Shown here: positions 12,863 to 60,349 of the stretch, piece after piece
Numbering within the stretch: position 1 is the first letter of the stretch
Layout of the letters: every line of letters begins with the position of its first letter
Source of the DNA: Octopus vulgaris
Taxonomy: Eukaryota
Direction: 5' to 3'
Length of the DNA: 64,000 nucleotides
Assembly (NCBI GenBank): GCA_951406725.2
Contig: OX597814.1
Location: 174,530,001 to 174,594,000, forward strand
The notes under the pieces: model-generated
Told to the model about the DNA's origin: nothing
Seen by the model: the letters and a program-made list of their open reading frames with translations, nothing else
The model's database searches: none
Made by a program: the position numbers and the translations under genes

Positions 12863-13338
12863 CGTATAGATTATTTCATTAATTTTTAACTAAACCCTTT
12901 CAAACTTCCGATACTGGTGAAATGTGTCACATAGAACAGGGTTTACTCTTAACGTTTGGGACAAAATTTTGTATTTTAGAAGTTATTTCGTCAGAGTGAC
13001 AATGGACAAATTCGTGTTTGATAAGTGCCAATACGCGAAACTCAGCTTTTGACTTACTCTCTAACTTCTGCTGATGATATATATACATATATGTGTAAAA
13101 TAAATCTCATCGCGCAATCGAACCAATGAAATAGCCTTTATCTGGGCGCTCGACACGCTAAAAATAGTAGCCAAAGTATCCCCCTACCCAAATAACACGC
13201 CCATTGTATGTAATGTCCTATATTATACCTAAAAAGACGATTTGCTTACATAGAAAAATTGAAATTTCAGTATTTTATAAAGTAAAATCTTCAATTATCA
13301 ATTATCTTATAACGGCAATGCCTGGAAAAATCATGGAT

Positions 13339-13855
13339 AACATAGAAAAGAGCGAGCATGAAAAATAATATTCTTAAGATTATAAACCTGGAAAAGTACA
13401 GGACAAGTTATTACACCTGTAAAAGTATAGGACAAACTATTACTTCAAGTAAAGTAAAACAATAAGAAACTTTTTACTTAAAATATTGCAGCTAAAATAA
13501 AAATTTGAATATTAAGAATTATTTTATTATAGTTTACAAATAACACTATACTTATTTAAGTAGAATTTGGTTAATTTACTACCTTATATACAGAAAAAAG
13601 TGACTAATTAGACAAACTTACAAATTAGCTGAACAGTTTTGTACAATGAATTTAAAAGATGAGAACTGTAAAGAGTAATAAATTAGAACTGGCATTCTTT
13701 GCTGCAATATTTTAAGTAAAGAGTTTATTCTTATTCTTTACTTTACTTGGAGTAATAGTTTGTCCTATACTTTTACAAGTGTAATAACTTGTCCTGTACT
13801 TTTCCAGATTTATAATCTTCAGAATATTACTTTCCATGCTCGTATTTTTCCATGT
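13339..13855. mobile_element. MITE with ~160-bp terminal inverted repeats
   Basis: cgagcatgaaaaataatattct..ctggaaaagtacaggacaagttattacac..gtaaaagtataggacaaactattact is mirrored at ~13695-13855. Confidence 0.8.
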
Positions 13856-13899
13856 AATATATATATATATATATATATACCATATATATATATATAATT

Positions 13900-19105: not shown

Positions 19106-21035
19106 TCAGGTGTAGTTTCGACGGATTTCGGAAAGCATGAGGGCCTTAAAGGATGCAGTGTCATGGCAGTCAACAACTGATGCAGGCAGTTTATTCCACG
19201 CTTCAGCAACCCTGAGCGTGAAAAAATGTTTCCGAAAGTCATGGGAGCTGTATTGTTTTCTGACTTTGTAGGCATGTCCACGTGTGTTAGACACATGGAG
19301 ATCAAAAAGGTGTTCAGTGTTGTTGTTGGTGAGGTGGTTGATAACTTTGTGGGTGTTTACCAAGTCCGTCGCCAAACGCCGGAGCTTCAGTGAATCCATG
19401 CCCAGGGAAACAAGGCGCTCAGAATATGGTAGGTGTCTGATGGAGGGTATGCGTTTGGTTGCACGTCTCTGGACAGATTCCAGGAGGTCAATGTTCTGTG
19501 CAAGATAGGGGTTCCAAACTGATGATGCGAATTCCAAGTGTGGTCGTACCATAGCTGTATACAGTTTTAAATAGATGGCTGGAGAGCGGCTAACAAAAGA
19601 CCTGCTGAGTGATGCCAAGACACCCTCGGCCTTCCTGACAATCTTAGAGATATGCTTTGACCAACGCAAATCACTGCTGACAGTGATGCCTAGGTCACGC
19701 TCGCAAGAGGATTTCTTGATATCAGTGTTGTGGAGGGAGTATGTGAACGCAGGGTTTTTTCTCCCAAAATGCATGGTGGTACACTTGTCCACAGCCAGTT
19801 TCAGTTGCCAGTCTGTGATCCATTGCTGCATTGTGTCTAGGTCTGATTGCAGGAAAGAGTTGTAGACATCAGGATCTGTCCTCTTGATTTCAAGGTACAG
19901 CTTGATGTCGTCTGCATATTTCAATACTGTGGCATTCTTTAAATTGGCATCTATGTCGTTAATGTATGCCACAAACAAGAGGGGACCAAGGACAGATCCC
20001 TGTGGTACACCCGATGACATCTCATATGGTGTAGAGTGCTGTCCTAGAACTGTAACTACCTCCTTTCGGCTGAGGATGAAGGATTTCAACCAGTTAAAAA
20101 GGTCATCCCCCACACCCATTGCAGAGAGTTTCACCATAAGCCTTTTGTGTGGCACAGAGTTGAAAGCCTTAGCAAAGTCAAGGTAGACAACATCCACCCA
20201 TGAGCCACTGTCAGTAATCTGAGTAATGTCCTCAAGGAACTCGACAAGCTGGTCACTGCAGCTGGAGTTAGGGACAAATCCATATTGTGAGGGTCGGATG
20301 AGACTGTGAGAGCTCCAGAAGTTCCAGAGTGTTTCTCTGACACACGATTCCATCAGTTTTGCAATACAGCTAGTGAGACTGACTGGGCGATAGTTGACAG
20401 GTGATGTGCGGTCGCCCTTTTTGAACAGAGGAATGACACTGGCAGTTTTCCACTGCTCCGGAGTAGCACCATTGTTGAGACAGTACTGGAAGAAAATAGA
20501 AAGCTGGTGTAAAAGGAAGTGCCTGCCACGTTTGAGAAGCAGGTATGTAACTCCATCGAGACCAGGGGAGGCATAGTTGCGCTTATTTTGAAGGTGACGT
20601 CGCAGCATTGCAGGTGTAAATTCCATAGTTGTTATGGAGTTTGCTGTTAGTGATGGTGAAGATGGTACATTTTGACTTTCAACAGTGAATATGTTTGCAT
20701 AGCACTCGGCAATGAGTTCTGCGCATTCCTTGGGGTCGTCAGTGATCTGGTTTGTGTGAGGGTTGCGAAGAGGGCCCACTGGAGAGTGAGGTCTCTGCTT
20801 TGAGTGCACATATTTCCAGAAAACCTTGCTGTCAGGATTGGCTGCTATGCACTGTTCAAATTCAAGCACTGCTTTTTTTGTCACTTGCTTGAGATGGTTG
20901 GAGGATTTATTCCGCTTCTTCCTGTTGGTGTCTGATTTATGCAACCTGTATTCTCGTTCAGCAGTCCGACGTTCCCTCCTGGCAAGTCGGACCGCTGAAG
21001 TTTCCCAAATTGCCCTTTTGGGGCGGTTCTTCTTT
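19106..21035 (-). CDS. LINE ORF2, reverse transcriptase part (frameshifted from the endonuclease part)
   Basis: SPGLDG, PLFKKG..NYRPVSLTS, QYGF, YLDFAKAFNSVPH, SGVPQGSVLGPLLF, YADD. CR1-type C-terminus VRPHLEFASSVWNPY..LESVQRRATK..TRGH..FFTLRVAEAWNKLP. Confidence 0.95.
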
Positions 21036-21930
21036 TTTGTTTACGTGGCACTGATGCTGCACATGCTGCCCATATTGAGTCCAGGATACTCTGGAGTATA
21101 GTATTCACATCTCCAGAGTTGTAGAATTCACGCCAGTTTGGGTGCTGTAGTTCAGTGTGGTACAGGTTCCAATCTGCTCTCTTCCAATCGAAGGAAGCAG
21201 ATTGGAGATGGTTCAGGTTTTTGTTGCCCGCAAGAGCCAGATTGGCGATGATCATAGCATGATCAGAGTCACCTAGAGGTTCCTCCGTTGTGCAATTGAT
21301 AACTGCTTCAGGAGTTGTGGTGAAGAGCAGGTCCAAGGTGTTGTCGCCTCTTGTTGGAGAGGTGACTACTTGTGACCAGTTTGAGTCCAGCACAAGCTCA
21401 ACAAAATCGTTTGCACTCTGTGGCCAATGGAAGGTCTCCCAATCGATCTCAGGATGATTGAAATCGCCTGCAATAAACACATAAGTGGCTGTTTTCCTGG
21501 CAGCAGCTCGGAGGACATTGCAAAGCTGTGTGTCCCGATGGTAACTTGGGGGACGATAAACAACGCCAAGCAGGAGTGTTGACATGGTCATACGCACGTC
21601 ACAGAAAAAAACTTCTTCTTGTGATTCGTTCAAATCGGCACAAGGAATTACCAAAAAATTTGAACGAACGTAGACCATCACACCACCACCACGGCGGTTA
21701 GTGCGGTCCTTACGGAAGAGGTTGTACCCCGTAATGTTGAAAACCCCATCACAGAGTAAGGAATGCGCCCATGTTTCCGTGACAGTGATGAAGTCAGGGT
21801 CAACACTTCTGACGTAGGCGTTGAACAAATGTATTTTGTTGCATAAACTGCGAGCATTTAAGGACAACAATTTGTACCCTGCTCGCAGTTTATGATGGTG
21901 TGTAGAGGATGGCAGGTTGTTCTGGCTTAG
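20881..21930 (-). CDS. LINE ORF2, APE endonuclease part
   Basis: LNARSL, ITVTETW, RKDR..GGGV, VYRPP, AGDFN, PTR..LDL, SDH. The frame is open upstream to the ORF1 stop with no ATG. Confidence 0.93.
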   Translation of the reverse strand, partial: LSQNNLPSSTHHHKLRAGYKLLSLNARSLCNKIHLFNAYVRSVDPDFITVTETWAHSLLCDGVFNITGYNLFRKDRTNRRGGGVMVYVRSNFLVIPCADLNESQEEVFFCDVRMTMSTLLLGVVYRPPSYHRDTQLCNVLRAAARKTATYVFIAGDFNHPEIDWETFHWPQSANDFVELVLDSNWSQVVTSPTRGDNTLDLLFTTTPEAVINCTTEEPLGDSDHAMIIANLALAGNKNLNHLQSASFDWKRADWNLYHTELQHPNWREFYNSGDVNTILQSILDSIWAACAASVPRKQKRRTAPKGQFGKLQRSDLPGGNVGLLNENTGCINQTPTGRSGINPPTISSK

Positions 21931-22717
21931 TTTCCCTGAGTTGCTGTAGTCTTTTTAGTTATTGTGGGTAGAGAGCACTCAGACCAGCTGGTATCTCTCT
22001 TCCACGTTTCAGCAGTCTTGACAAATCTCCAGATTTGTCCATCTTCCCGAAGACTGAAGCTTTCCTGTAGAGCTGAGTTCCTATTCAGGGAAGCCACTAC
22101 ACGTAGCTTCGGGCGTACATCGGACGGTAAGCCTGGGCGTGTTCGGAAGGTGGTCCGATTTTCCCGCCCAGCTTTAACTGAGGCCAGATGGTAAGAGGTT
22201 GCCTCAGTGGGGTCCGTAAAAGACAACTTGATGAGCCTAGGTTTTGGGCCAGGTTGTCCAAGGCGGATAGCACCCGTTGGGGGAACGCAGCCTAGGTCTT
22301 TGGCTGAGTTGGCAGCAAAAGCCTGAAGATCAGCCATGTCTTCTGGCACCCCAATGGCGATGACTTCATGGGTGGCAGAATCCGCAGTCTTAAATGCGAC
22401 AAGAGGCACAGGTACAGGGAGGTTCTTTAGCAGAGCATTCCGATAAGACCCCTCATTGTGGAGTCCAACCTGAATGGTTGCTTTTATTCCTGCTACTTCC
22501 CCTTTTAAAGCACAGATCGATTGTTGCAGTTCTGCAAGAACCGCACTGGTCAATTGGTGTTGTTGTTGTTGCTGCTGTTGCTCTGGTTGTGGTTGATTTT
22601 GTTGTTGCTGTTGTTGTTGTTGATGTTGTTGTTGCTGCTGCTCTGGTTGTGGTTGATTTTGTTGTTGCTGCTGCTCTGGTTGTGGTTGATTTTGTTGTTG
22701 CTGCTGCTGCTGCTCTA

Positions 22718-22750
<33 letters not shown>

Positions 22751-23144
22751 CTGGTTGTGGTTGATTTTGTTGTTGCTGCTGTTGCTGTTCCGCCTCCTCC
22801 ACGGGAGTGGCAGGGGGAGACACAATCGTCGGTTGTGGAGGCACGCAGGCCTGACACTGAAAAGTCCAAGATTTAAGCTGAACCATCTTCCAGAGTCTAT
22901 CCATCATAGCATTATGATGGCTCTTTTTTTGGCCTGGGATCTTCTGAAAGTCCGTGGCACATTGGAGGCAGACAGAGATGAGACATGTCCCACATTCGAC
23001 CCAGCGATTACGGAACGTATTTTCGGGTTCCGTACAGATGTGGCAGGTGTGATTTTCTGGGCAGTGTTCTATTTTAGAGCAGCGACCAGTCTTATCGCAC
23101 GCCGCTATGGATTTCACCATGGCGATTCTGTTGGTTCTGGTCAT
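21927..23144 (-). CDS. LINE ORF1 protein (PHD-like zinc finger, polyQ repeat, coiled coil, RRM-like domain)
   Basis: 405 aa. CHIC..VECGTCLISVCLQC..FQCQAC, repeated Q-rich QnNQPQPE units, heptads LAELQQSICALKGEVAGIKATI, VIAIGVPED..IRLGQPGPKPRLIKLSF. Directly upstream of ORF2. Confidence 0.88.
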
Positions 23145-23743
23145 CCGTAGAGACAGAAAATGTAAACAACAATACGATAAAAGTAAAATATAAAATATTT
23201 GTTTTTGATTCGTTCTTTTTTGTGTATATTCCTTGTTCTTAAATATTGTGTGTGTATATACACATGTTTCGTTCTTTTTTGTGTATATTCCTTTTTTTCT
23301 TAAATATTGCGTGTGTATACATAAAAGTATTTGTGCGTATAGACACGGAGAAAGTTTGTAAACAGAGATGAAATTTTTGATTTTTTTGCAGTGTAGTCCG
23401 TCACATTAAATAGTGTGATTTATTTTCACTCTGCACGTATATACATGTGTGCTACAAGTATCTATGTATGTATGTATGTCACTGCTTTATAAATTTTGGA
23501 CGTACTTACTGTCGTTCAACGATTTCTTTTACCCTCAACTACACGTGGTGAATTCTTCCATTGTAGATCTGTGGTGGTCATCGTCGTAATATTTTCTCTT
23601 TAGTTTCCTCGCCAAATTGATTATACCCTAATCAAACCATTTGTTTGTCTTGTTTTAGTAACATTGTATTTTCCTCCTTTTCCTTTTTCATTCCCATATT
23701 ATATGGAACTTCGGTGGACAGCTACTCTAAGACTCCAGCTGCC

Positions 23744-26255: not shown

Positions 26256-26547
26256 GGCAATCTTACGGTTCTAGTATATTTTACGTCAACTGACCACGTG
26301 TATTTGTTTATATATGATCCTCGATTTCCGTAAAAAACTTTTAGTTTTTTACATTTATTTTTTTACATATGGGGTTGGGGGGAAATGGGATCTTTAGGGT
26401 TTGGGGTTAGGGTTAGGACCCTAAGATCCCATTTCCCCCCAACCCCATATGTAAAAAAATAAAAGTTTTTGACGGAAATCGACGATCATATATAAACAAA
26501 TACACGTGGTCAGTTGACGTAAAATATACTAGAACCGTAAGATTGCC
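26256..26547. mobile_element. Palindromic MITE with TTAGGG repeats in its loop, inserted in the RTE fragment
   Basis: ggcaatcttacggttctagtatattttacgtcaactgaccacgtg is mirrored at the right end. ttagggtttggggttagggttagg at ~26394-26417. Confidence 0.85.
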
Positions 26548-31597: not shown

Positions 31598-31820
31598 TGT
31601 GAGGTATACTTGCCATCTCAATATGGCTAACCACTAAGGGTGGGTGTTACTGTAGCTTGTAGCCCCAGGAGAGCATTGTCTCCAGCTGGCTATAGGCACC
31701 CTTTCTGTGCCCTAAAGTGTGCCTATAGCCAGCTGGAGACGTTGCTCTCCCGGGGCTACAAGCTACAGTAACACCCACCCTTAGTGGTTAGCCATATTGA
31801 TATGGCAAGTTTACCTCACA
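31598..31820. mobile_element. Near-perfect palindromic insertion with 12-bp TSD (Penelope-like)
   Basis: About 100-bp arms. TAACTTTTTTCT at 31587-31598 and 31822-31833. Confidence 0.75.
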
Positions 31821-33239
31821 TTAACTTTTTTCTATTTCTCATAAATGCATGTTTGCTGATTTTGCCTCCATTTTTCTTTCATGTAAGGGAAAGAAGTATT
31901 TAAAGTGAAATTTTTTTTTGTCAAGAGACTTAAATTTTAAATTCTATTGTATAAAGATTACATTTTATTTAATATTTCTTCAATATTTATAAACCAGCTG
32001 TTTCTACATATTTGAACTTCATCAGTATAGAACACCAGATAGTCAATTCATTGTTATTTACATGGAACAATTTCCATACCATCTGAATTTTTGCCTAACA
32101 CAGACTGCAAACACATTCAGCATGAACAAAGAAACAGAACTAGTAGTCTGATCGTATATACATTTAAGCAAACACTATTGTATATTTCTGGTCATATGAA
32201 TTAGAAGAAAGACGGCATTCTTCAGATTACAATTCTTTGAAAGAATGGAGGCGTATAATGTTCTCTGCTTTTACCAACACTATACTTATGCACTAAGTGT
32301 ATCAGTAGTGAAATTAACCGCACTTTAAATTTTACATTCCCATATCAATGTAAATTTCAGAAAATTACTACTTATTTGACAAAATTAACTCAACTGCTGC
32401 TCACATTTTCTAACTACAGCTAGAATTTTGATGATTTACAACTCCTACATGGTTAACATGTAATTCTAAATCGTAACTAGACTACTTGGTCAATTATCCA
32501 ATTGTTACTACAGTTTTCTGGTAACAGCTGTTGTGTATTGATCAAAGATGTTAACAGCAAAAACTGCAAAGACAAGAAAACGACTCTGCATTTAACAGTC
32601 AAGTGAGCTCTTAACAGGAGGGAAAAAAAACAAAACAGTTATTTAAATTCCAGTCAGTCCTGATCAAGCAGACCTTATAAGCAGGCATTTTAACTGTGAC
32701 CATCAGATCATTTTCTGGCAGTATATCTAAAACTATTTCATCCAACCTGGTCGATCTTTCTTTTACTTTGTAACATTGATCGAGTAGATTTTAGGAATAT
32801 ATAACTGATAGATTGAGTGACAATGAAGAGATTATTTCATTGGCTTGAATGAAAGGATCTGCCTACCTCACTCTCTCTATATTTTATACATACATTTACA
32901 CACACACACTCACACAGCTAAATATTAAATCTATATAGACATATATGGGGAGGAAAATATTAAAGTACATAATTTTTTTCAACAAAATCATGAGTTTAAA
33001 CCTTGTTATATTCCTAAGAGTGTAGTGTTAGACTGTGTCACTACCTTCAAAGTTGTTTTAGTTGATTATATCAACCCTAGTACATTGTCAAGTACTTATT
33101 TTATCAACCTTACATGAGGAAAAAGTTAAAGTTGATATGAAGCAATGGGATGTAACTGTACTGGAGCAAAACAAAAACCATCATTTCATTTGTTTGATGC
33201 ATTGGTTCTTCTAATCTAGTCAGATCTTTCATAATATGT

Positions 33240-33637
33240 AGGCGCAGGAGTGGCTGTGAGGTAAGTAGCTTCCTTACCAACCACATGGTTCTGGGTTCAG
33301 TCCCACTGCATGGCACCTTGGGCAAGTGTCTTCTACTATAGCCTCGGGCCGACCAAAACCTTGTGAGTAGATTTGGTAGATGGAAACTGAAAGAAGCCCG
33401 TCGTATATATATATATATATATATATGAGTGTGTGTCTGTGTTTGTCCCTCACCAACATCGCTTGACAACTGATGCTGGTGTGTTTACATCCCCATAACT
33501 TAGCGGTTCAGCAAAAGAGACTGATAGAATAAGTACTAGGCTTACAAAGAATAAGTCCTGGGGTCGATTTGTTCAACTAAAAGGTGGTACTCCAGCATGG
33601 CTGCAGTCAAATGACTGAAACAAGTAAAAGAGTAAAA
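33240..33637 (+). mobile_element. SINE family A, full length
   Basis: aggcgcaggagtggctgtg head to gactgaaacaagtaaaagagtaaaa tail. Confidence 0.9.
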
Positions 33638-33875
33638 ATATATTATTAACAGGATTTGTTTTGATAACTGTTGTACAATTGTTTCCAAAATTGATATTTA
33701 AAAAATAAATACCTATCAATTCCTCAGTAACTGAAATCTAAATGTTTAAAATTAGTAAAAATGTAGTGTTCTTTGTTACAAGTTGAAGAACAACAATACT
33801 GTTTTATTTATATGTAAATATATTAGCAGAGCCAATACTCTGCATATCACAGTAACAAGCTACTGGATCAGCCAG

Positions 33876-34021
33876 TTTCTGTCAACCAAATCCACTCACA
33901 AGGCTTTGGTCAGCCGAGGCTATAGTAGAAGACACTTGCCCAAGGTGTCATGCAGTGGGACTGAACCCGGAACCATGTGGTTGGTAAGCAAGCTACTTAC
34001 CACACAGCCACTCCTGCACCT
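33876..34021 (-). mobile_element. SINE family A, head fragment
   Basis: Matches 18860-19014. Confidence 0.85.
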
Positions 34022-36896
34022 ATATATTAAGTACTTTTTCATTTGAATACCAACATTGTGTGTGTGTGTATGTATCTGCATGTATGTGTATATGTGTGTG
34101 CATGTATATGTATGTGTTTGTATATACATAGACATACACATTACATACAAGCATGCATACATGGTTGCTGTCAACTCATATATCAGTGTAGCCATCACTG
34201 ACAAATCAATGTCTACACTAAATTTTAGGTCTAATAAGGCTTACACATCACCTTATTGACCCTCTCCACCCTACTGACATGATCCAAAGACAAGCTGAGG
34301 CAAGATATCTAATGTCAATATGATTTGCAGGCTCAAGAACATCTTCAGCATCAAGAACAATCTTCAGCATCAGCAAAAGATCCCCAAAATAACTAATGCC
34401 ATTCCTTGCACACTGTTTTCTATCAGTGACTTTCTCCTAGAGACATGCTTTAATAAAAGCTGAGGGATGCCTCACTCCCAGTGGTTTTCCAGCATACAGG
34501 GATACCAATCCAGAATTTCTTGATTGCTTATACTATTACCAGATAGCTGTTGGACCTACATTGGGTTCATCCATCCTCTTGACAGGCCTTTTTTTTAACA
34601 ACCTTCCTCACCAGGTTAGCCAGGTGGGGGTGCCAGATTAGTTGCTCATGATCACAAAGACACTTCTTTGTGATCACTAAACCACCAAAAAGCTGCAGGC
34701 AAATCTCTTCAAACCATAACCAATGCAATCAAATGAGGCATTTACACCAGGGAGGATTCAAGAAACCATTCAATATAATAACTTCAGCCCAAATATATTG
34801 GTTAGTAGATTTAACCCTTTAGCATTTAAATCAGCCATATCCAGTCAAAATATTTTACCTGTTTTATTTTCAAACCAACTAGATTTGGCATCTTGCACCT
34901 ACCCTACAATGCCATTCTAAAAGTAAACAATTTTAATATCAAAATCTTGAAGTTATAAAATTATGTATGATTAATTTCAAAGCAATGAATAAATAAACTT
35001 TATATTTGATAGAATAATCCGAATGCTTTAGGATTAATTTATCATTTGATTTAACACCACCACCTGATTCTGTGTATCTTTAGCTGAGCCTACTCTGTTG
35101 CAAGCATTCAGACCAGGTCTCCCATTTGAGGATGCCTTCTTTCTCTCTCTCTCTCTTGTCCTAGGGCTCTGTAAAAGAGTCATGAGCACTGCCTTTCCTT
35201 TCTGACTGAAAGATTTTAAAAAAAATACATTTACCTGACAAAAAAATAACCCTCATTTTGTAAATTGTCTAGAAACATCTGATTGGAAGTGACTCAGTGT
35301 GGAAACAAGAAATGCATGAAAAGTCAACATGTTATTATATACCTAACATGAATAAAAATAAATATTTATTTCCAGTATAATATCAAGGGGTTATTATAGG
35401 CTGGCAGAGTTGATAGTTTTGGAGAGAATGCTTAGTGGTATTTTGTTGCACCAGTTTGTGTTCTGAGTTCAAATCTTGCAGAAGTCAACTTTGCCTTCCA
35501 TCCTTTTGGGGTTGACAAAAATAAAGTACTGATCAAGTATTGACTTGATGGTATTGACTAACAATCTCCCTGTAAAATCATTGGCCTTGTGTCTAAATTA
35601 GAAAATTATTTCACCAATAGGTGTAATCTTTGACATAGGCACATGGCCACACATATTGGGGGAAAGTGAACAACAGTTGAGTAAGTGTAACCCTACTTCT
35701 TGGCTGGTACATATCATCCCCAGAAGGATATAAGGCAAAGCTGACCTAGGTAGGATTTCAACTTGATTCACAAACAGCCAGAATGAATATGCAAAGCCAT
35801 CTGACATGAATGATAATGATTTCAAACTTTGATGCAAGCCTACAGTACCAGTGATAAGATGAACTCTCAACTCCCCAGGCAAACAACTGATACCTTATCT
35901 TACAAATTGTGATCATACCATTTTAACATCTGTTTTTGTAGCCTTTATTGAAAAAGTTTATATATCATCTCCAAAATGAGTCACTACCCTGTCTCATCTC
36001 AACAGAGAAGCTTAATGTTCTCAGGTCTAATTTAATTGCTTCATTTGCAAAACCATCCTTGAGCTGCTTCTGCTATGTATACCATCTTGTAAATATTTCT
36101 TTTTTAATTGTATGCATTTGTTAGTAGTAGCATTTTACATAACATGTTCATACCGACGCCGTTATATCGTGACTGCTCATAATTTATTAGTCTTCTATTT
36201 TCAGCTGTTTTCTTGATAAATGTGTTTATGAGAAGCCAGCATTAAAACAACTTTTAGATGGCTATTGGCTATGATGGCTGTGTTGATTATAATGTATAAC
36301 ACAGGGTAACGCTGGCCTTAATACATAATACATAATGTTGTATAGTGAAGCTTGATGACAACAGAAAAGCTCAGTACACAGCACATGTTCAAGATTATGT
36401 TTCATTATGCTACTGTGAGTTAATCAATAATCTCTAGATATTTTCCACAAAACTATTGATTATAATGATGATGATAGTCATGAAATATTAATAATTTGGT
36501 AGATTTCTGTAAATAATATTTTGCTTTCTTTGTTTGTTTCCTTCTGTGACATAGTATCTATCATCATCATCATCATCATTGTTTTAATAATCACTCTTCC
36601 ATGCAGACATAGGTTGAATGAGAGAAAAATCATCATTCACCTCAATCTGTGTTATGTCACTTGTGGGGCTCTAACATCTTGAGATCAGTCCCCAATGCCT
36701 CCCTCTGTGCTTTCCTCTATCATGATGTTGAATATGAGTAAAAGAAAATATTAATTTCTGAATTTAAAACTTATAATGGGCAAAAAAGAATTTTTTAGTC
36801 TTGACAGAATACCTCTCTAGTGCCAGTGACATGATAAAAAGCACCTAGTCTCCACTGAAAAGCAGTTAGTGGGAGGAAGAGCATTCTGCTGTAAAT

Positions 36897-51139: not shown

Positions 51140-51506
51140 CCCAACCAATTGGTTCCAGGTTCAGTCCCACTGCATGGCACCTTGGGCAACTGTCTTCTAT
51201 TATAGCCTCAGGCTAACCAAAGCCTTGTGAGTGGATGTGGTAGATGGAACATGAAAGAAGCCCATTGTGTACGTGTGTGTGTGTACATAAACACATGTGT
51301 GTGTGTCTTTGTATTTGTTTGTGTTCCCTGCATTAACAACTGGTGTTGGTGTGTTTACATCCCTGTAACTTAGTGGTTTGGCAAAATAGACTGATAGAAT
51401 AAGTACCAGGCTTCAAAAAATAAATACTGGGGTTGATTTGTTTGACTAAAATCCGTCAAGGCAGTGCCCCAGCATGGCCACAGACTAAAGACTGAAACAA
51501 GTAAAA
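51140..51506 (+). mobile_element. SINE family A, diverged copy abutting the LINE
   Basis: Same layout as the other copies, with more substitutions. Confidence 0.85.
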
Positions 51507-54500
51507 CAACGTACACCTCACCTCGATACTCCTACTGAACATCAGAGGACTGCAAACACTCAGTAACAGGACAAAGATCCCGTTCCTGAGAGACTTTGTT
51601 GCATGCAATCAAGCCTTATGCATAGCACTTACAGAAACGCACCTGAAACCGGACATAGCAGATGCGGAGTTACACATACCACAGTATGCTGTACTACGGA
51701 CCGACAGGAAAGAAAGGAGTCATGGAGGTGTTGCTATGTACATCCGTGAGGACCTCACACCCCAGGTCCTCTTGTCATACTCAAACTCGGTGTGTGACAC
51801 ACTAATTGTACATATTAGGCAACTTGATGTAGTTGTGTGTGCTACATATCGCCCTCCAGATGCCCCAAGCCATGTGGGCAAGTTTGAAGACTGCCTTATA
51901 AAAATAGAAGAAATTCTAACCACATTAGAACAACACATAGGTGTGCTTCTTATGGGAGACTTCAATCTGCCCAATGTCAGATGGCCCGAGGGCCTTTCTC
52001 TCCCAGGAATGACAAGATGTGAACGAGGACAGGCGAGGTCCCTCCTGAACCTCATCAACACCCTGTACATGGAGCAGGTAATACTCCAACCAACCAGGGC
52101 AGGTAACACACTGGATCTCTGCTTCACAAATGACATGGATCTCAGCCATAATGTGAAAGTGACACCGACACTACTCTCGGATCACAACATGATAGAGCTG
52201 ACCATGTACGGGCCAAAAGAGAGCACGGACATGCAGCCTACAAGAAACCCTCAAAATCTTTCCAGCTTGAACTACCATAAGGCAAACTGGAAACAAATTG
52301 AAAAGAGATCCTCAAACAAAACTGGCCTAAATGTCTCTCCTCGCCAGACATCGACGTGAAACTTCAAAAATTCATGTCTGTAATGCAAGCCATATGCTAC
52401 AAATGTGTCCCAGAGAGAAAGGCCACTGTACACAAGAACAAAATCCCCAGAGAGAGGAAAATTTTAATGAGACGGCGTACGAAATTTTCAAATCGCCTAA
52501 ACAAACAGATTGAAAGCAGTGAAAAGTCCCGCCTAAAAATAAAACTGTTGGAAATCGAAAAATGTCTGCAACTCTCCCATGAAAAAGAAAGAGCAGACAA
52601 AGAAGCCTGGGCTATAGAAAACATAAAATCTAACCCCAGAGCTTTCTACAGGTATGCCAAAGAAACAGCTACAGTGCACTGTAGAATAGGGCCACTCCTC
52701 GAAAAGGATGGCACACTTACAGGAAAACCAACGAGGGTAAGTGAAATACTGAATGAGCAATTCAAGAGTGTTTTCACTCCACCCCTTGGGCATCTCCAAA
52801 TCACCAATCCAACTGACTTTTTACCACTGCAGATATAAAATCAGAGGCGGCGACGATAGATTACATCGATATAAAGGAAGACGATGTAACCAAGGCTATA
52901 GATGAAATGAAAACAGACTCAGCTACTGGCCCCGATGGATTCCCGGCAATCCTCCTAAAAGCATGTAAGAGAGTCCTAGCAAGACCACTGCAGTTCCTCT
53001 TTCAGAGCTTCCTTGCAGCTGGCAAACTTCCAGGAAAACTGAAGGAAGGTAAAATATGCCCCATTCATAAAGGAGGTAGCAGAGCGGAAGCCAAGAACTA
53101 TAGACCTATCTCTCTGACCTCACACATCAGCAAGGTCATGGAACGAATAGTCAGAAGGAAGCTGATCACCTTCCTTGAAGAGAATGACTTGCTGCCCGAC
53201 ACCCAACATGGTTTCCGACCAGGGAGAAGCTGTTTAACTCAGCTCCTACAACACTATGACTGGGTGCTGAAATGGCTGCTCAACCACTCAAATGTGGAAG
53301 TGATATATCTCGACTTTGCAAAGGCCTTTGATAAAGTCGATCATGGAATGATATGTCACAAACTGCGTGATCTCAACATAGTTGGAAAACTGGGAGAATG
53401 GCTTCATGACTTTCTGAAGGATAGAAGTCAGGTGGTAGTAGCCAATGGGGCCACCTCCATTAACACACAAATAGTGAGCGGTGTTCCGCAGGGCACTGTT
53501 CTGGGACCACTACTGTTCATAATGGCCCTCTCAGACATGCCCTCAGCCACGCAGAGAGCCACGATCACAAGTTATGCAGATGATACAAAAGTTTCACAGG
53601 CAATACAGAACCCTGAGGACACTAAACACCTGCAATGTGAGCTGGACGAAATATACAAGTGGGCTGAAAAGAATAGCATGCAGTTCAATGCTGGAAAGTT
53701 TCAAGCTTTACACTATCAGCATGCAAAACTGAATGCAATACCCAATGAATACACTGGACCCGGAGGGATTGCAATCCCAAAGGCACAATCAGTGCGTGAC
53801 CTGGGTATTCACATGAGTGATGACGCGACCTTTCATGTACATGTTGCTAAACTGACAATGAAATGTAGACGGCTGGCTGGATGGATTCTTAGAACCTTTA
53901 GAACAAGAGAACAAGAAACCATGATGGTCCTCTGGAAGACACTTGTCCTAAGTCACTTTGACTATTGCTCTCAGCTATGGTCACCATCCAGTGTCAAGTT
54001 GATCACAGAACTTGAGGCGATCCAACGAAGCTACACAAAGAAGATAGCCTCTATGCAGAATGTAAGCTACTGGGAAAGACTCAAGAGATTAAAATTATAT
54101 TCCCTGGAGCGTAGGCGGGAAAGATATGCCATAATATACATCTGGAAGATCCTGGAGGGAAGTGTCCTGAATTTTGGCATCGAGAGTTACGCAAATGCCA
54201 GAACTGGGCGCCACTGCGTGGTGCCTAGGACTCCAAACCTGCCATCAAGATGTAGGACAAGATTCTGTGATAGCCTGGGCTTCCGAGGCCCACTGCTCTT
54301 CAATATCCTCCCGAAAAACCTGAGAGACCTGCATGGGGTGGATACAGATGTCTTTAAAATGAAGCTGGATCTCTTCCTGTCAGGTGTCCCAGATGAACCA
54401 ACTTCACGGCAGGAGGGGCAGATGAGGGCAGCTGCATCGAACTCTCTCATGCACCAAATAGCAGTTGCTAGAAAGCCTCCATGAAGTGAAACCAAGTAGC

Positions 54501-56238: not shown

Positions 56239-57700
56239 AATTTTAATTAATACGTTCTCTAACCGGCAAAAGCCACTGCAGTAAATTATTTTCTGCAGTA
56301 TTATTTTCCGGTAATTTAGCGCGCCAAAACGAAGACTTTGGAAAAATAACTGCAAGTGTAATAGGTAGAGCTAGATGCAAGTCTGCCCTCGTGCAGATGT
56401 CTTCGTATATAGTTCTGCAAATTATATTTGTATAGACGATCACACTGAGGATCTATGGACAGATTGCGTAAGTAAAAAATTATGTAATATGTTAATAGTA
56501 AAACATGTACATGAATAATCTATATTTTGCTACTTTTCATTTGTCTTGTTTGCTTATGTTCTGGTGTTTGCTAAATTTTTCTTGAGAACATTTCTTAGTG
56601 GTAAGACCATAGTGGATCTACTTCTAGCATAAGGGTTATCTACATAATGGTCATCCCTCTCATTTATATATATATATATCCAATGGGTTTTGCACAATGT
56701 CTGTCTTACAAATTACACTCACAGAGCATTTTTTTTTATTCAATGCTAAAGTAAAGCACACTTGCCCAAGACACTGCATGTTTAGACTGAAGCAAAGGAC
56801 TACATGCTTGCAAAGCAAACATTGTGACCACACTGTAACATTAGTATTACATTTTATGAATCATTAAATGATAATTACTAAAATGGTAAAGCTCACTTGG
56901 AAGATTGTTGGTTGATGGTGGGAGACAAACGATGTGCTTTGATTCTGTTCGATAAATGAAATGTGTATTATAGCCACTTAAAAAGTGTCTGCTTAAATAA
57001 TAAATTTGAACATTGTTTCATATGATACATTATTTAAAAAGAAAAAGAAAAAACAGTATGCTAATCTATGTATCTGTGTATAAAACATTTTATAGTATTA
57101 GGAGTACATTCCAACTCTTGGTAAAAACAGATGAGACATTGGAAAGATTAGTTTCAGAATCATTACTCTTTGTTCAGTTTTCATAACCTTGCTTTTCTGT
57201 TGCAGGGCAACATAAGCATTTCCTACCTAGCTATAAGGCACTCCTGTGCCTGTGTTACAAATATTCAGCTTTGACTGCTCCTTTGTTTATTCGCACCTAT
57301 GTTTTTACTGAATATAGTCCTACTAATGTTCAGGCTTGTATTGCAATCTGATCAGTCTGAGAGAGCCAAAAGGTCATGAACACTATCCCTCCACTTCTTG
57401 CTAACTTATTTAACAAAAAATATATGTCATTCAAAAGTTATTCTCTTTGTTACTGTGTAGTTGTCTAAACTCCATATTCTTCTTTCCATAACATATTGTA
57501 TTGTTCTAATTCTCCTTTATATCCTCCAGCTCATTTCCATCTTTCTTTTCCATATACTGCTGCTGGTTAACACCTTGGTTCCCAATTCCTTTTTAATGAT
57601 AAGGGTAATTTTTCTTTAATCGCAAATATATTATTGTATCATCTGATGTTGAATGTTATGCTGGAAGTTAAATGTGTAGAGAAAAGGAGGAGGAGAGGAG

Positions 57701-58760
57701 TGTTGTGGTCTATGTAGCTAAATAGTTGAATGATCTTCCTTGTAAGAAGGATTATAGAGTAACCTCCCTTTACTAAGTTTCTTGAAGCATCTGTGTCATG
57801 AGATGTGATTCTTAATTATTCAAGAAGCTTAGTGTTTCTCTTGGAATTTCTAGAATGTCTAGCATTCCATTAATAAAAACAGCTTGCTAACCCTCTTCTT
57901 CGCTTCTTAGTTGATTAGACTTAGAATCATTCAGAACCATTCACATCATTGCTATGTCTGTCTATTTCTCTATGCCACATGACTGAAAGCCACCAGTTAG
58001 CTGTTATTTCTTTATTTCCTATCTCTGAATTTTCTTGCATAGATTACTTCATTCAACTAGATTCTACATTTTGATTCTATGTATCATCATCGACCATTAA
58101 ATAAAATGTATTTTTATGTAGTAAATATATAGTTCTTGAATTTATTCTTCATTTCTATATGTACTCTTGTAATAATATACACGCAGTCACATCAACACTT
58201 GGCACTGAATATATATCAGAAGGCTGCATGTTCGTATCACGTCGGGGTCACCAATTTATGTAGTGGAAGTATATATTCAGAACCAGGTGTTGATATGACT
58301 GCGTGTATATGATTACAAGAGTTCATATAGAGATGAAGAATAAATTTAAGAACTACATAAAAATATATTTTATTTATTGGTTGATGATGATACATAATCA
58401 AAATGTAGAATTTAGTTGAATGAAGTAATCTATGCAAGAAAGTTCAGAGAGAGGAAATATAGAAATAACAGCTAAGTGGTGGCTTTCAGTCATGTAGCAT
58501 AGAGAAATAGACAGACATAGCAATAGCGTGAATGGCTCTAAGTCTAATCGACTAAGTGAAGAGCAGGGTTAGCAAGTTGTTTTTTATTAATGGAATGCAA
58601 GACATTCTAGAAACTTCTAAGAGAAACGCTATGCTTCTTGAATAATTAAGAATCACATCTTATGACAAAGATGCTTCGAGAAACTTAGTAAAGGGAGATT
58701 ATTCTATAATCCTTGTTGCAAGGGAGATCATTCAACTATTTAGCTACATAGACCACAACA
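57701..58760. mobile_element. Palindrome of two inverted Gypsy-type LTR copies around a tRNA-Trp 3' half
   Basis: Arms 57701-58216 and 58259-58760. The minus-strand LTR runs TGTTGTGG...CCACTACA, then TAAAT and TGGTGACCCCGACGTGAT (tRNA-Trp PBS). Flanks are GGAG / GAAG. Confidence 0.85.
58215..58253 (+). pseudogene. tRNA-Trp nt 38-76 including 3' CCA (reverse-transcribed primer tRNA)
   Basis: ATCAGAAGGCTGCATGTTCGTATCACGTCGGGGTCACCA compared with the recalled metazoan tRNA-Trp(CCA) 3' half ATCAGAAGGYTGCGTGTTCRAATCACGTCGGGGTCA+CCA. Confidence 0.85.
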
Positions 58761-59480
58761 GAAGTTAGAGATTTACTTAAAGCAAAAGCAAAGTGAGAGT
58801 TGGTAGGTCATTTAGGCAGAACAGAGTTAAATAAGATGGACAAAAAGAACTACTGAATGGTCTCTGCAAGAGAGATTGAGAAGGTGGATGGAGTGGTGGT
58901 GGTGGTGGTGGCAGGGAGAAGACTTTGAGGTAATGCATGAAGGCATTGAAGGGAAGTACAGTTCCAGTTTAGACATGAATGGCAGTGGACTAGAAGAGGT
59001 GGAAATGGCTTGATGAAGTATAAGTCCCACAGTAGACTACTTTATGAATAATTCAGAAAACAGTATCAAGAAGTGGCGTTGAAATGTATTAATTGCACGT
59101 CTTGAAACTAATGTATGCTTTCAACAATATATCATAAGAGCTATAGGTTATGACTATTGTACTTCAAACTCCCCAGCCAGTCTATCCTGAAATGTTTATA
59201 TATAATTGAAATGTTTTTATTCTTGCTCATTAACAAGAGTTTGAACTTTGTAAACCTTCTGTCAATTAGCCTAAATTGATGAACTTGAATTATTAAGGAA
59301 GTTAATACATGGAAGATAAAACTTGTTCTGCATTAACTTGACATCTTAATCCCCTGTGTCTCTTAAGTGTAGTGTCATCAAATTAGCCAGTTTATTGACT
59401 CAAATTATTATCTCACAAGTAATCTCTCCTTGTTTGTCTTCTTTAAAATAGTAACAATACTGAATTGGTAGACACGGTGT

Positions 59481-60349
59481 GTACACATGGTCTGATAAAT
59501 AAGTATCCGGACTGTTGCTATAGTAATGAAGCAAAAGCACGGAGAGTGAAGCCGCTTGGCACAGATGGACCTTGAACTCTGCTGTGCATTCACACTAAGT
59601 TTTAACATTCTAGCTAACTTCCACTGTTTACAGCAGTGCGTGGAAGGAATGTGTGTAGTGTGTGATTGTCACATTGACCATGACAGAGAAAGCTGAACAG
59701 AGAATCTGCATCAAATTTTGCCAAAAGCTTGGTGATACCTGCTCAGACGCTGATGCAAAGTTTTCAAAAAGTTTTCATCGTTCTCGACACAATCAAGGAG
59801 ATCTTGTGCAACTGAAACCGAAGTGTCTTTTTGGTCAGCTGAAAATAGTTTTGGCACAAACTTGGCACACATGCGTCTCATACCCAAATTGTCAGTGATA
59901 ATGGACTGGACTGAACTGAACTGTAACTAATCTGCACATCCTCTGATAACTCATGGATGGTGATTCAACAATTTTCCCTCACAGCTGCATGCACATCTGC
60001 GATGTTTTTCTCAGTTTTGCCTGTTGCAGGTCTCCTAGAACATTCGATATCAACATTTTTTCAGCAATCTTGGAAACATCTGAACCACTCTTACACTTGT
60101 GTGTGGCTCATACACTCCTCTCTATACACTTTCTGCAACTTAGTGTAGGCCTCTGAGCAGTATCGTCTTGACAACTTTCTCTGTCGTGGTCCATGCGATG
60201 ATCACACGCTAAATAACTTCCTTCCAAGCACTGCTGCAAACAGCGGAAGTGAGCTAGAATGTTAAAAATTAGTGCGCATGGACAGCAGAGTTCAAGGTCA
60301 ATCTGTGTGCTAGGTGACTTCACTCTGTGCTTATTGATCAGACCTCATA
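59481..60349. mobile_element. Mariner-derived element with long inverted arms
   Basis: TIR ggtctgataaataag / cttattgatcagacc. MTEKAEQRICIKFCQKLG (mariner N-terminus). The 5' region is repeated in inverted form at ~60130-60349. Confidence 0.8.

Follow-up and report, generated by a model that had tools for sequence, protein, structure and literature searches.

Structure of the palindrome

The window analysed here is a stretch of 64,000 nucleotides from Octopus vulgaris (assembly GCA_951406725.2, contig OX597814.1, positions 174,530,001 to 174,594,000), and coordinates refer to this stretch. Near its right end lies a non-coding element with inverted terminal repeats. On the minus strand it begins with a complete 502-bp LTR (TG..CA; 58259-58760) of a Trp-primed, probably CsRn1-like Gypsy family, followed by a 5-nt spacer common to family copies (58254-58258) and an 18-nt primer-binding site (PBS; 58236-58253) complementary to tRNA-Trp positions 76-59, including the CCA. 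Complementarity to the tRNA continues on the same strand as a read-through copy of positions 58 to 38 (58215-58235), after which the LTR is found again in inverted orientation. This second arm (57701-58216, plus strand) begins at the first base of the LTR, the U3 end, and lacks the last ~10 nt of U5. Tract and arm meet in an ATAT junction (58213-58216) common to the LTR arm and to tRNA positions 36-39, with T at 37. The inversion ends at the LTR first base on both sides, and the outer ends of the element are LTR U3 termini of a retroelement. Outside the inversion lie GGAG (57697-57700) and GAAG (58761-58764), candidates for a target site duplication and identical at 3/4 positions. When the arms 57701-58216 and 58259-58760 are aligned in inverted orientation, 452 of 517 columns are identical, with 37 substitutions and 28 gap columns.

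Compared with the genome's own tRNA-Trp gene plus CCA, 58215-58253 corresponds to tRNA 38-76 with mismatches only at 58235 and 58228. The base at 58235 (plus strand) is tRNA position 58 and has T for A, which would be a misincorporation opposite m1A58. The base at 58228 is position 51, where the G of a CpG has become A; a sequence-only reading of this DNA had not mentioned this change. The structure claimed in that reading, an LTR joined to a 39-nt tRNA-Trp copy (76 to 38, with CCA and T58) and to an inverted LTR, is confirmed by the alignment. That reading also let the copy end just before position 37. The match does run as far as 38, but the end may also be at 36: 58214 has T at the G37 site and 58213 has A, as A36, and the tract may reach 36 through a misread 37. 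The two ends are ambiguous because both bases overlap the LTR's own ATATAT.

ARAGORN called no tRNA gene anywhere in the window, and Rfam gave nothing there at gathering level. The Rfam family RSV_PBS matched the PBS weakly (E 0.2, below the gathering score), and a match to mir-3149, likewise not at gathering level, was rejected as a reflection of the hairpin. A strand of the element is predicted to fold into a hairpin of ~470 pairs, as any such palindrome would. No RNA data set was listed as containing this locus, which has no bearing on its expression.

The palindrome is not an assembly artefact, as had been argued earlier. Its fold-back junction is crossed by contigs, with 50 letters to the contig end, in two of four independent runs (X4 and X7), which carry other organism labels. 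Run X3 covers the junction at single-copy depth and run X5 has no coverage there. The borders between element and flank are bridged by 31 or more letters, the left one in X7 and the right one in X4 and X5. Position 58214 reads C in X4 and X7. An empty site was not found among the joints listed (15 of 41) in the four runs, so that a 4-bp duplication at the window element is not proven.

The genome searched, of 227 contigs, is 2.8 Gb long, and the arm recurs in it: there were 463 candidates, 40 of which were scored. Together with 57 matches for the tract pattern, against 0 for its reversed control, this excludes a chance resemblance. In contrast to the multi-copy, MITE-like inverted-LTR family that had been imagined for this element, a search for the junction pattern returned two matches, the window and one unrelated stretch, and thus only one true junction. 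The element is an inert, immobile single copy. Its LTRs are inverted, not direct, with no polypurine tract (PPT) between them, and it would be incapable of retrotransposition because it is without a direct second LTR and a polypurine tract.

The parent LTR family

Most of the scored relatives of the arm are solo TG..CA copies. Ten family solo LTRs have 4-bp duplications that are perfect in 3, at 3/4 in 6 and at 2/4 in 1, while 3 of 15 control non-solo rows reach 3/4. The 3/4 state of the window element is the commonest among these solo LTRs (6/10), and the GGAG/GAAG mismatch is typical decay for this family. The orientation of the LTR is fixed by a common 3' internal region and a G-rich tract found upstream of some copies. 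One PBS-bearing copy continues into a reverse transcriptase (RT) fragment, a weak Pfam RVT_1 match (E 1.5e-4, below the cut-off). Most family copies with a PBS have no coding parent next to them; what was found is limited to fragments (L133, L137 and L184). The CHCC Gag signature CX2HX9CX3C is present in 13 of 14 full-length relatives (60-67% RT identity) and was not found in the window family's own decayed loci. This signature, a Trp PBS and a 4-bp duplication are given together as the hallmark of CsRn1-like elements in the available text of PMC2582038. The solo copies, the PBS-bearing copies and the RT fragment bear out the view that both arms derive from LTRs of a Gypsy family primed by tRNA-Trp, and the parent likely belongs to the Trp-primed CsRn1-like group of Ty3/Gypsy, in the CsRn1 clade. 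Elsewhere in the genome (L136/L093, G000:C20:44.42 Mb), two window-family LTRs lie ~390 bp apart, together with a PBS and the internal region's 3' end, a TRIM-like deletion derivative.

The two arms are mutual nearest neighbours, 8.0% apart as against 8.3% or more to other copies. They hold two near-private variants in common and their branch lengths equal the family median. The trees, however, give them little backing as sisters: one joins them with 77/11 support and a second does not separate the alternatives (p-AU 0.50).

Origin of the tRNA tract

The tract was copied from a tRNA and is inherited neither from the parent nor from a gene. ARAGORN called tRNA-Trp genes at 18 of the 27 loci scanned. 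Among 32 gene-like tRNA-Trp copies A58, which the sequence-only reading expected of the genes, is found in 31 and G37 in all, and the CCA present in the tract is absent from them. About 20 tRNA-Trp genes form a cluster at G000:C6:58.38-58.46 Mb, one of which (L044) has T58 together with a second change.

The normal PBS is 18 nt or shorter, in agreement with the ~18 nt predicted for the parent. Among coding relatives a PBS was found at 9 of 18 loci, with 10-12 contiguous matches and 18 in one; in one full-length copy (L193) a short native PBS is extended to exactly 18 nt. In the window family, 13 LTR-PBS matches represent 9 distinct loci, 5 without a tract and 4 with tracts at different junctions. 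The genome has 180 loci with a full 18-nt PBS, and none of 40 sampled outside the known set has a contiguous match beyond 20 nt. Of these 40 (L244-L283), 24 come from a single family in which the match extends by two more bases. With 8 duplicate rows left out, a single clade of T58 copies is rejected (p-AU 0.019). Copies on C1 that might have been taken for a parent with a native T58 tract have both flanks in common; they are four duplicates of one event, ending at 40. Hence none of the three observations that could have told against a tRNA copy was made, namely a native 39-nt tract with T58, arms other than LTRs, or T58 as the state of the tRNA-Trp genes.

Genome-wide read-through events

Three pattern searches of the genome, with position 58 left free, gave 57, 33 and 58 matches, against 0 in all three for reversed control patterns. 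Tracts adjoin LTR ends at 58 loci. Twelve rows were dropped as duplicates or members of shared-junction groups (L011, L027, L074, L122, L130, L211, L231, L232, L236, L238 and the second units of L035 and L087), leaving 46 independent LTR and tRNA read-through events in 26 LTR-end clusters. Of the dropped rows, L122 carries C58, and L232 carries A58 with a junction of its own; keeping L232 would give 15/47 in the count below.

Position 58 is misread in 15 of the 46 events (T in 10, G in 5), compared with changes at 16 of 582 other non-CpG positions (p 1e-10); other A sites are changed in 3 of 213 cases. The correct A58 is found in 31 events. The misreads are spread over 10 of the 26 LTR-end clusters, and in the subset of 43 events where position 58 is charged like any mismatch they number 13. 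CpG sites change often, as at position 51 (13/45), but position 58 is not a CpG. In two loci the position is lost: the tract of L280 skips tRNA 58-54 and base 58 is deleted in L283.

The ends of the tracts are also unevenly distributed. In calling them, position 37 was scored free, one pattern needed a match to position 40, and microhomology blurs the ends by 1-3 nt. Among tracts at risk, 19 of 27 end within 34-38 (p 3e-5), and 26-27 is the stopping point of 4 of 6 (p 0.001). No tract passes 26 cleanly, since the two that go beyond it carry a deletion or an A there. At position 37, six tracts outside the window have T and all continue with A36 (p about 0.001), one has C and continues to 27, and G37 is read correctly in 13. 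A whole tRNA-Trp including the CCA adjoins the LTR at L086 (G000:C29:5.32 Mb), with G58 and a deletion at G26.

Presumably tRNA-Trp carries m1G37 and a methylated G26. We infer that the misreads at 58 and the pile-ups of ends at 34-38 and 26-27 are the reverse transcriptase signature of m1A58, m1G37 and methylated G26. For Trp primers, m1A58 is stated in the available text of PMC13191261, and the stops and misreads that reverse transcriptases make in tRNA sequencing are placed at 58, 37 and 26 in what is accessible of PMC8062790, PMC7144921 and PMC4787781. The low frequency of C at m1A when the next base is A fits the last of these (PMC4787781). The idea of modification footprints, put forward from one locus, is supported here beyond what its author could know by the 15 misread events in 46.

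In groups among the loci L117, L121, L122, L128, L130, L211, L231, L236 and L238, tracts to ~45-48 are held in common within tandem units of U5 tip and PBS. These groups are possibly read-through events turned heritable.

Sequences that follow the tract

At four loci the sequence jumps from the tract into gag or integrase. Five others (L057, L079, L123, L226 and L280) jump back to the U5 tip, by which the CA end is restored; a perfect duplication was found in 5/5 with a placed LTR start, that of L280 being AGTG. L124 has a perfect duplication directly at the tract end. In L078 the tract folds onto U3, 55 nt are copied to the LTR start, and the product is bordered by a perfect GTTG duplication. 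Perfect 4-bp duplications were thus found on seven products, L078 and six other events, while ten events with a placed LTR start had none at the tract end. These counts are without L278, L281, L080, L084 and L129, in which the LTR start was not placed. L078 is the design of the window element, LTR, tract and inverted U3 with two U3 ends, in another family. The search that had been suggested for LTR-tRNA-inverted LTR structures with independent junctions yields in this genome a second case, with a perfect 4-bp duplication.

Further fold-backs were found in L278, L115, L060 and L087, the last three without two intact U3 ends. In L278 (G000:C3:52.71 Mb) an inverted U3 tip of 28 nt directly abuts an 18-nt PBS, giving a product that has two U3 ends and shows no read-through. 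L087 (G000:C25:9.81 Mb) folds back inside the tRNA copy (~11 and 48), between short inverted LTR pieces, and adjoins a solo copy and a duplicated flank of ~105 bp; its fold-back may mark a stop at G9/G10. At L083 (G000:C14:32.53 Mb) the PBS is preceded by 750 bp that are themselves palindromic, with U5 ends outward.

Proposed mechanism and alternatives

We regard the window element, with a probability of roughly 0.8, as a single, immobile product of failed reverse transcription that read through into the tRNA-Trp primer. Plus-strand synthesis would start at the polypurine tract and copy the LTR and the attached tRNA-Trp primer, m1A58 being bypassed by insertion of a wrong base, and would stall at or just past m1G37. 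The over-long end would fail in plus-strand transfer, and we infer that its 3' end (AT or ATAT) primed on an AT run close to where U5 ends in the LTR of a plus strand. Copying of the LTR back to its first base would then give a DNA with a U3 end on each side, which integrase would insert with a 4-bp duplication. The template may have been the strand itself (snap-back, followed by conversion to a duplex), or it may have been a sister plus strand; in the latter case mutual 3'-end priming would yield a two-ended duplex directly. Sister-strand priming is slightly favoured. Snap-back alone would be insufficient: a 4-bp duplication requires two double-stranded ends, of which a hairpin offers one, and a second strand would have to be supplied.

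The same read-through and priming could instead have affected the right end of a linear DNA of full length; the entire element would then have been inserted and later reduced to LTR, tract and inverted LTR by LTR-LTR recombination. This would supply the double-stranded left end and solo LTRs dominate the window family, but a polypurine tract was found upstream in 0 of 20 events with a placed LTR start, and element coding sequence within 1.5 kb upstream at 1 of 55 loci (L070, gag-like). We consider this route unlikely, though a serious contender; it would alter the path to the element and leave the tRNA record unchanged. A later inverted duplication of an LTR and tract by host replication or repair is improbable. 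It would likewise make the arms sisters, and other long inverted repeats are present in the window, but here the inversion stops exactly at the LTR first base with no flank included, the divergence of the arms equals the age of the family, and in L078 this design recurs, bordered by a perfect duplication.

Inheritance of the tract and T58 from a parent subfamily whose native PBS was already extended, or their copying from a T58 tRNA gene, is very improbable and largely refuted. T58 does occur in 3 of 5 events of the window's LTR cluster, a few other families hold tracts to ~45 in common, and one tRNA gene copy has T58. However, the junction differs at each locus, the T58 clade is rejected (p-AU 0.019), the PBS at coding loci has 10-12 contiguous matches and 18 in one (9/18 loci), and a T58 gene cannot account for the G58 events. 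There is even less to recommend a mobile, MITE-like family of inverted LTRs that makes a silencing hairpin RNA, with the window element as its founder or a survivor: the ~470-pair hairpin is predicted and runs labelled as several organisms retain the insertion, but the junction pattern has its two matches in the window and an unrelated stretch, and without a direct second LTR or polypurine tract retrotransposition would not be possible. Least probable of all is a tail-to-tail meeting of two LTRs, by independent insertions or by autointegration. The LTR family is abundant and inversion products of autointegration are described in the accessible part of PMC7197481, but the junction lacks a processed CA end, the lost U5 tip was not found beyond the right arm, and the arms have near-private variants in common.

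Relation to known systems

Defective retroviral DNAs with tRNA inserts were reportedly obtained by Olsen and Swanstrom in 1985, Colicelli and Goff in 1986 and Pulsinelli and Temin in 1991; in these clones tRNA sequence is said to lie beside the LTR, with deletions joined through extra primer sequence. The four octopus loci that jump from the tract into gag or integrase would resemble them. To our knowledge, no two-U3 palindrome and no population of misreads is found among those laboratory clones (1985-1991).

In HIV-1, over-extended plus-strand strong-stop DNA (products P1-P5; PMC13191261, PMC8599865, both as far as available) arises, as here, when synthesis on the primer tRNA goes beyond m1A58; it may then stop again at the modified base 37, or an unmodified tRNA is copied in full. 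Products extended beyond 54 are said in the accessible text of PMC8599865 to be unable to integrate. Unlike these products, known in vitro and from infected cells, those of octopus are germline-fixed, appear to have been rescued by microhomology jumps, and have integrase-type duplications and retained misreads. With a CCA-bearing tRNA copy past 58 that is absent from the parent leader, the window unit is probably an integrated over-extended strong-stop DNA.

The CsRn1 clade of Ty3/Gypsy, which includes PwRn1 and AgCR (PMC2582038, in the part available), has in common with the octopus elements the tRNA-Trp PBS, the 4-bp duplication and, in full-length relatives, the CHCC Gag signature, but an internal region is absent from the window element, both of whose ends are U3. 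Helenus TRIMs, as presented in the accessible text of PMC10886601, are also short non-coding LTR elements with tRNA-like sequence and, in animals, a 4-bp duplication. They form a mobile family with direct LTRs, a PBS and a PPT, and their tRNA sequence lies inside the LTR as a promoter, whereas in the window element the tRNA piece is a copied primer that adjoins the PBS without a break and lies outside the LTR, in one immobile copy. A Helenus-type TRIM was rejected on the LTRs that are not direct, the missing PPT and the position of the tract outside the LTR. A MITE would fit the inverted repeats, but no dispersed copies of the whole unit were found in the genome. The signatures of tRNA sequencing described in the accessible sections of PMC8062790, PMC4787781 and PMC7144921 are similar in their stops, misreads and skips at 58, 37 and 26; unlike them, those of octopus would have been written by an endogenous reverse transcriptase in vivo and are fixed in chromosomes.

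Such structures are not mentioned in the available text of a repeat annotation of an octopus genome (PMC13282606), and no report of genomic LTR-tRNA read-through fossils was found in the accessible literature. Read-through into the tRNA is already known in vitro; within that coverage its genomic, germline-fixed record appears to be new.

Implications

Modified RNA bases are not normally recorded in DNA. In this genome such a record appears to exist in dozens of independent germline insertions, and ancient modification states would thereby become testable from assemblies alone. Over-extended strong-stop DNA, called a dead end for integration in the accessible text of PMC8599865, can apparently be rescued and inserted, and its rescue can create inverted repeats of 500 bp. 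The value lies in the class that is revealed and in the genome-wide record of modifications, not in the single window copy. We give about even odds to a broader proposal: failed plus-strand transfer would be a regular route to LTR-only insertions, some of them long hairpins; animal genomes would contain a datable 'tRNA-seq', made in vivo, of the primers of ancestral germlines (58, 37, 26 and perhaps 9-10); and some apparent solo LTRs would never have been full elements. If so, mining across primers and species could give a history of tRNA modification and of the bypass habits of extinct reverse transcriptases.

Other features of the window

Other long inverted repeats, probably MITE-like, are found in the window at 13337-13858, 26256-26547, 31598-31820, 33232-34029 and 59560-60307. 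Long reading frames at 19106-23405 (minus strand) and 51505-54484 (plus strand) resemble, by eye, the ORF1, endonuclease and reverse transcriptase of non-LTR retrotransposons.
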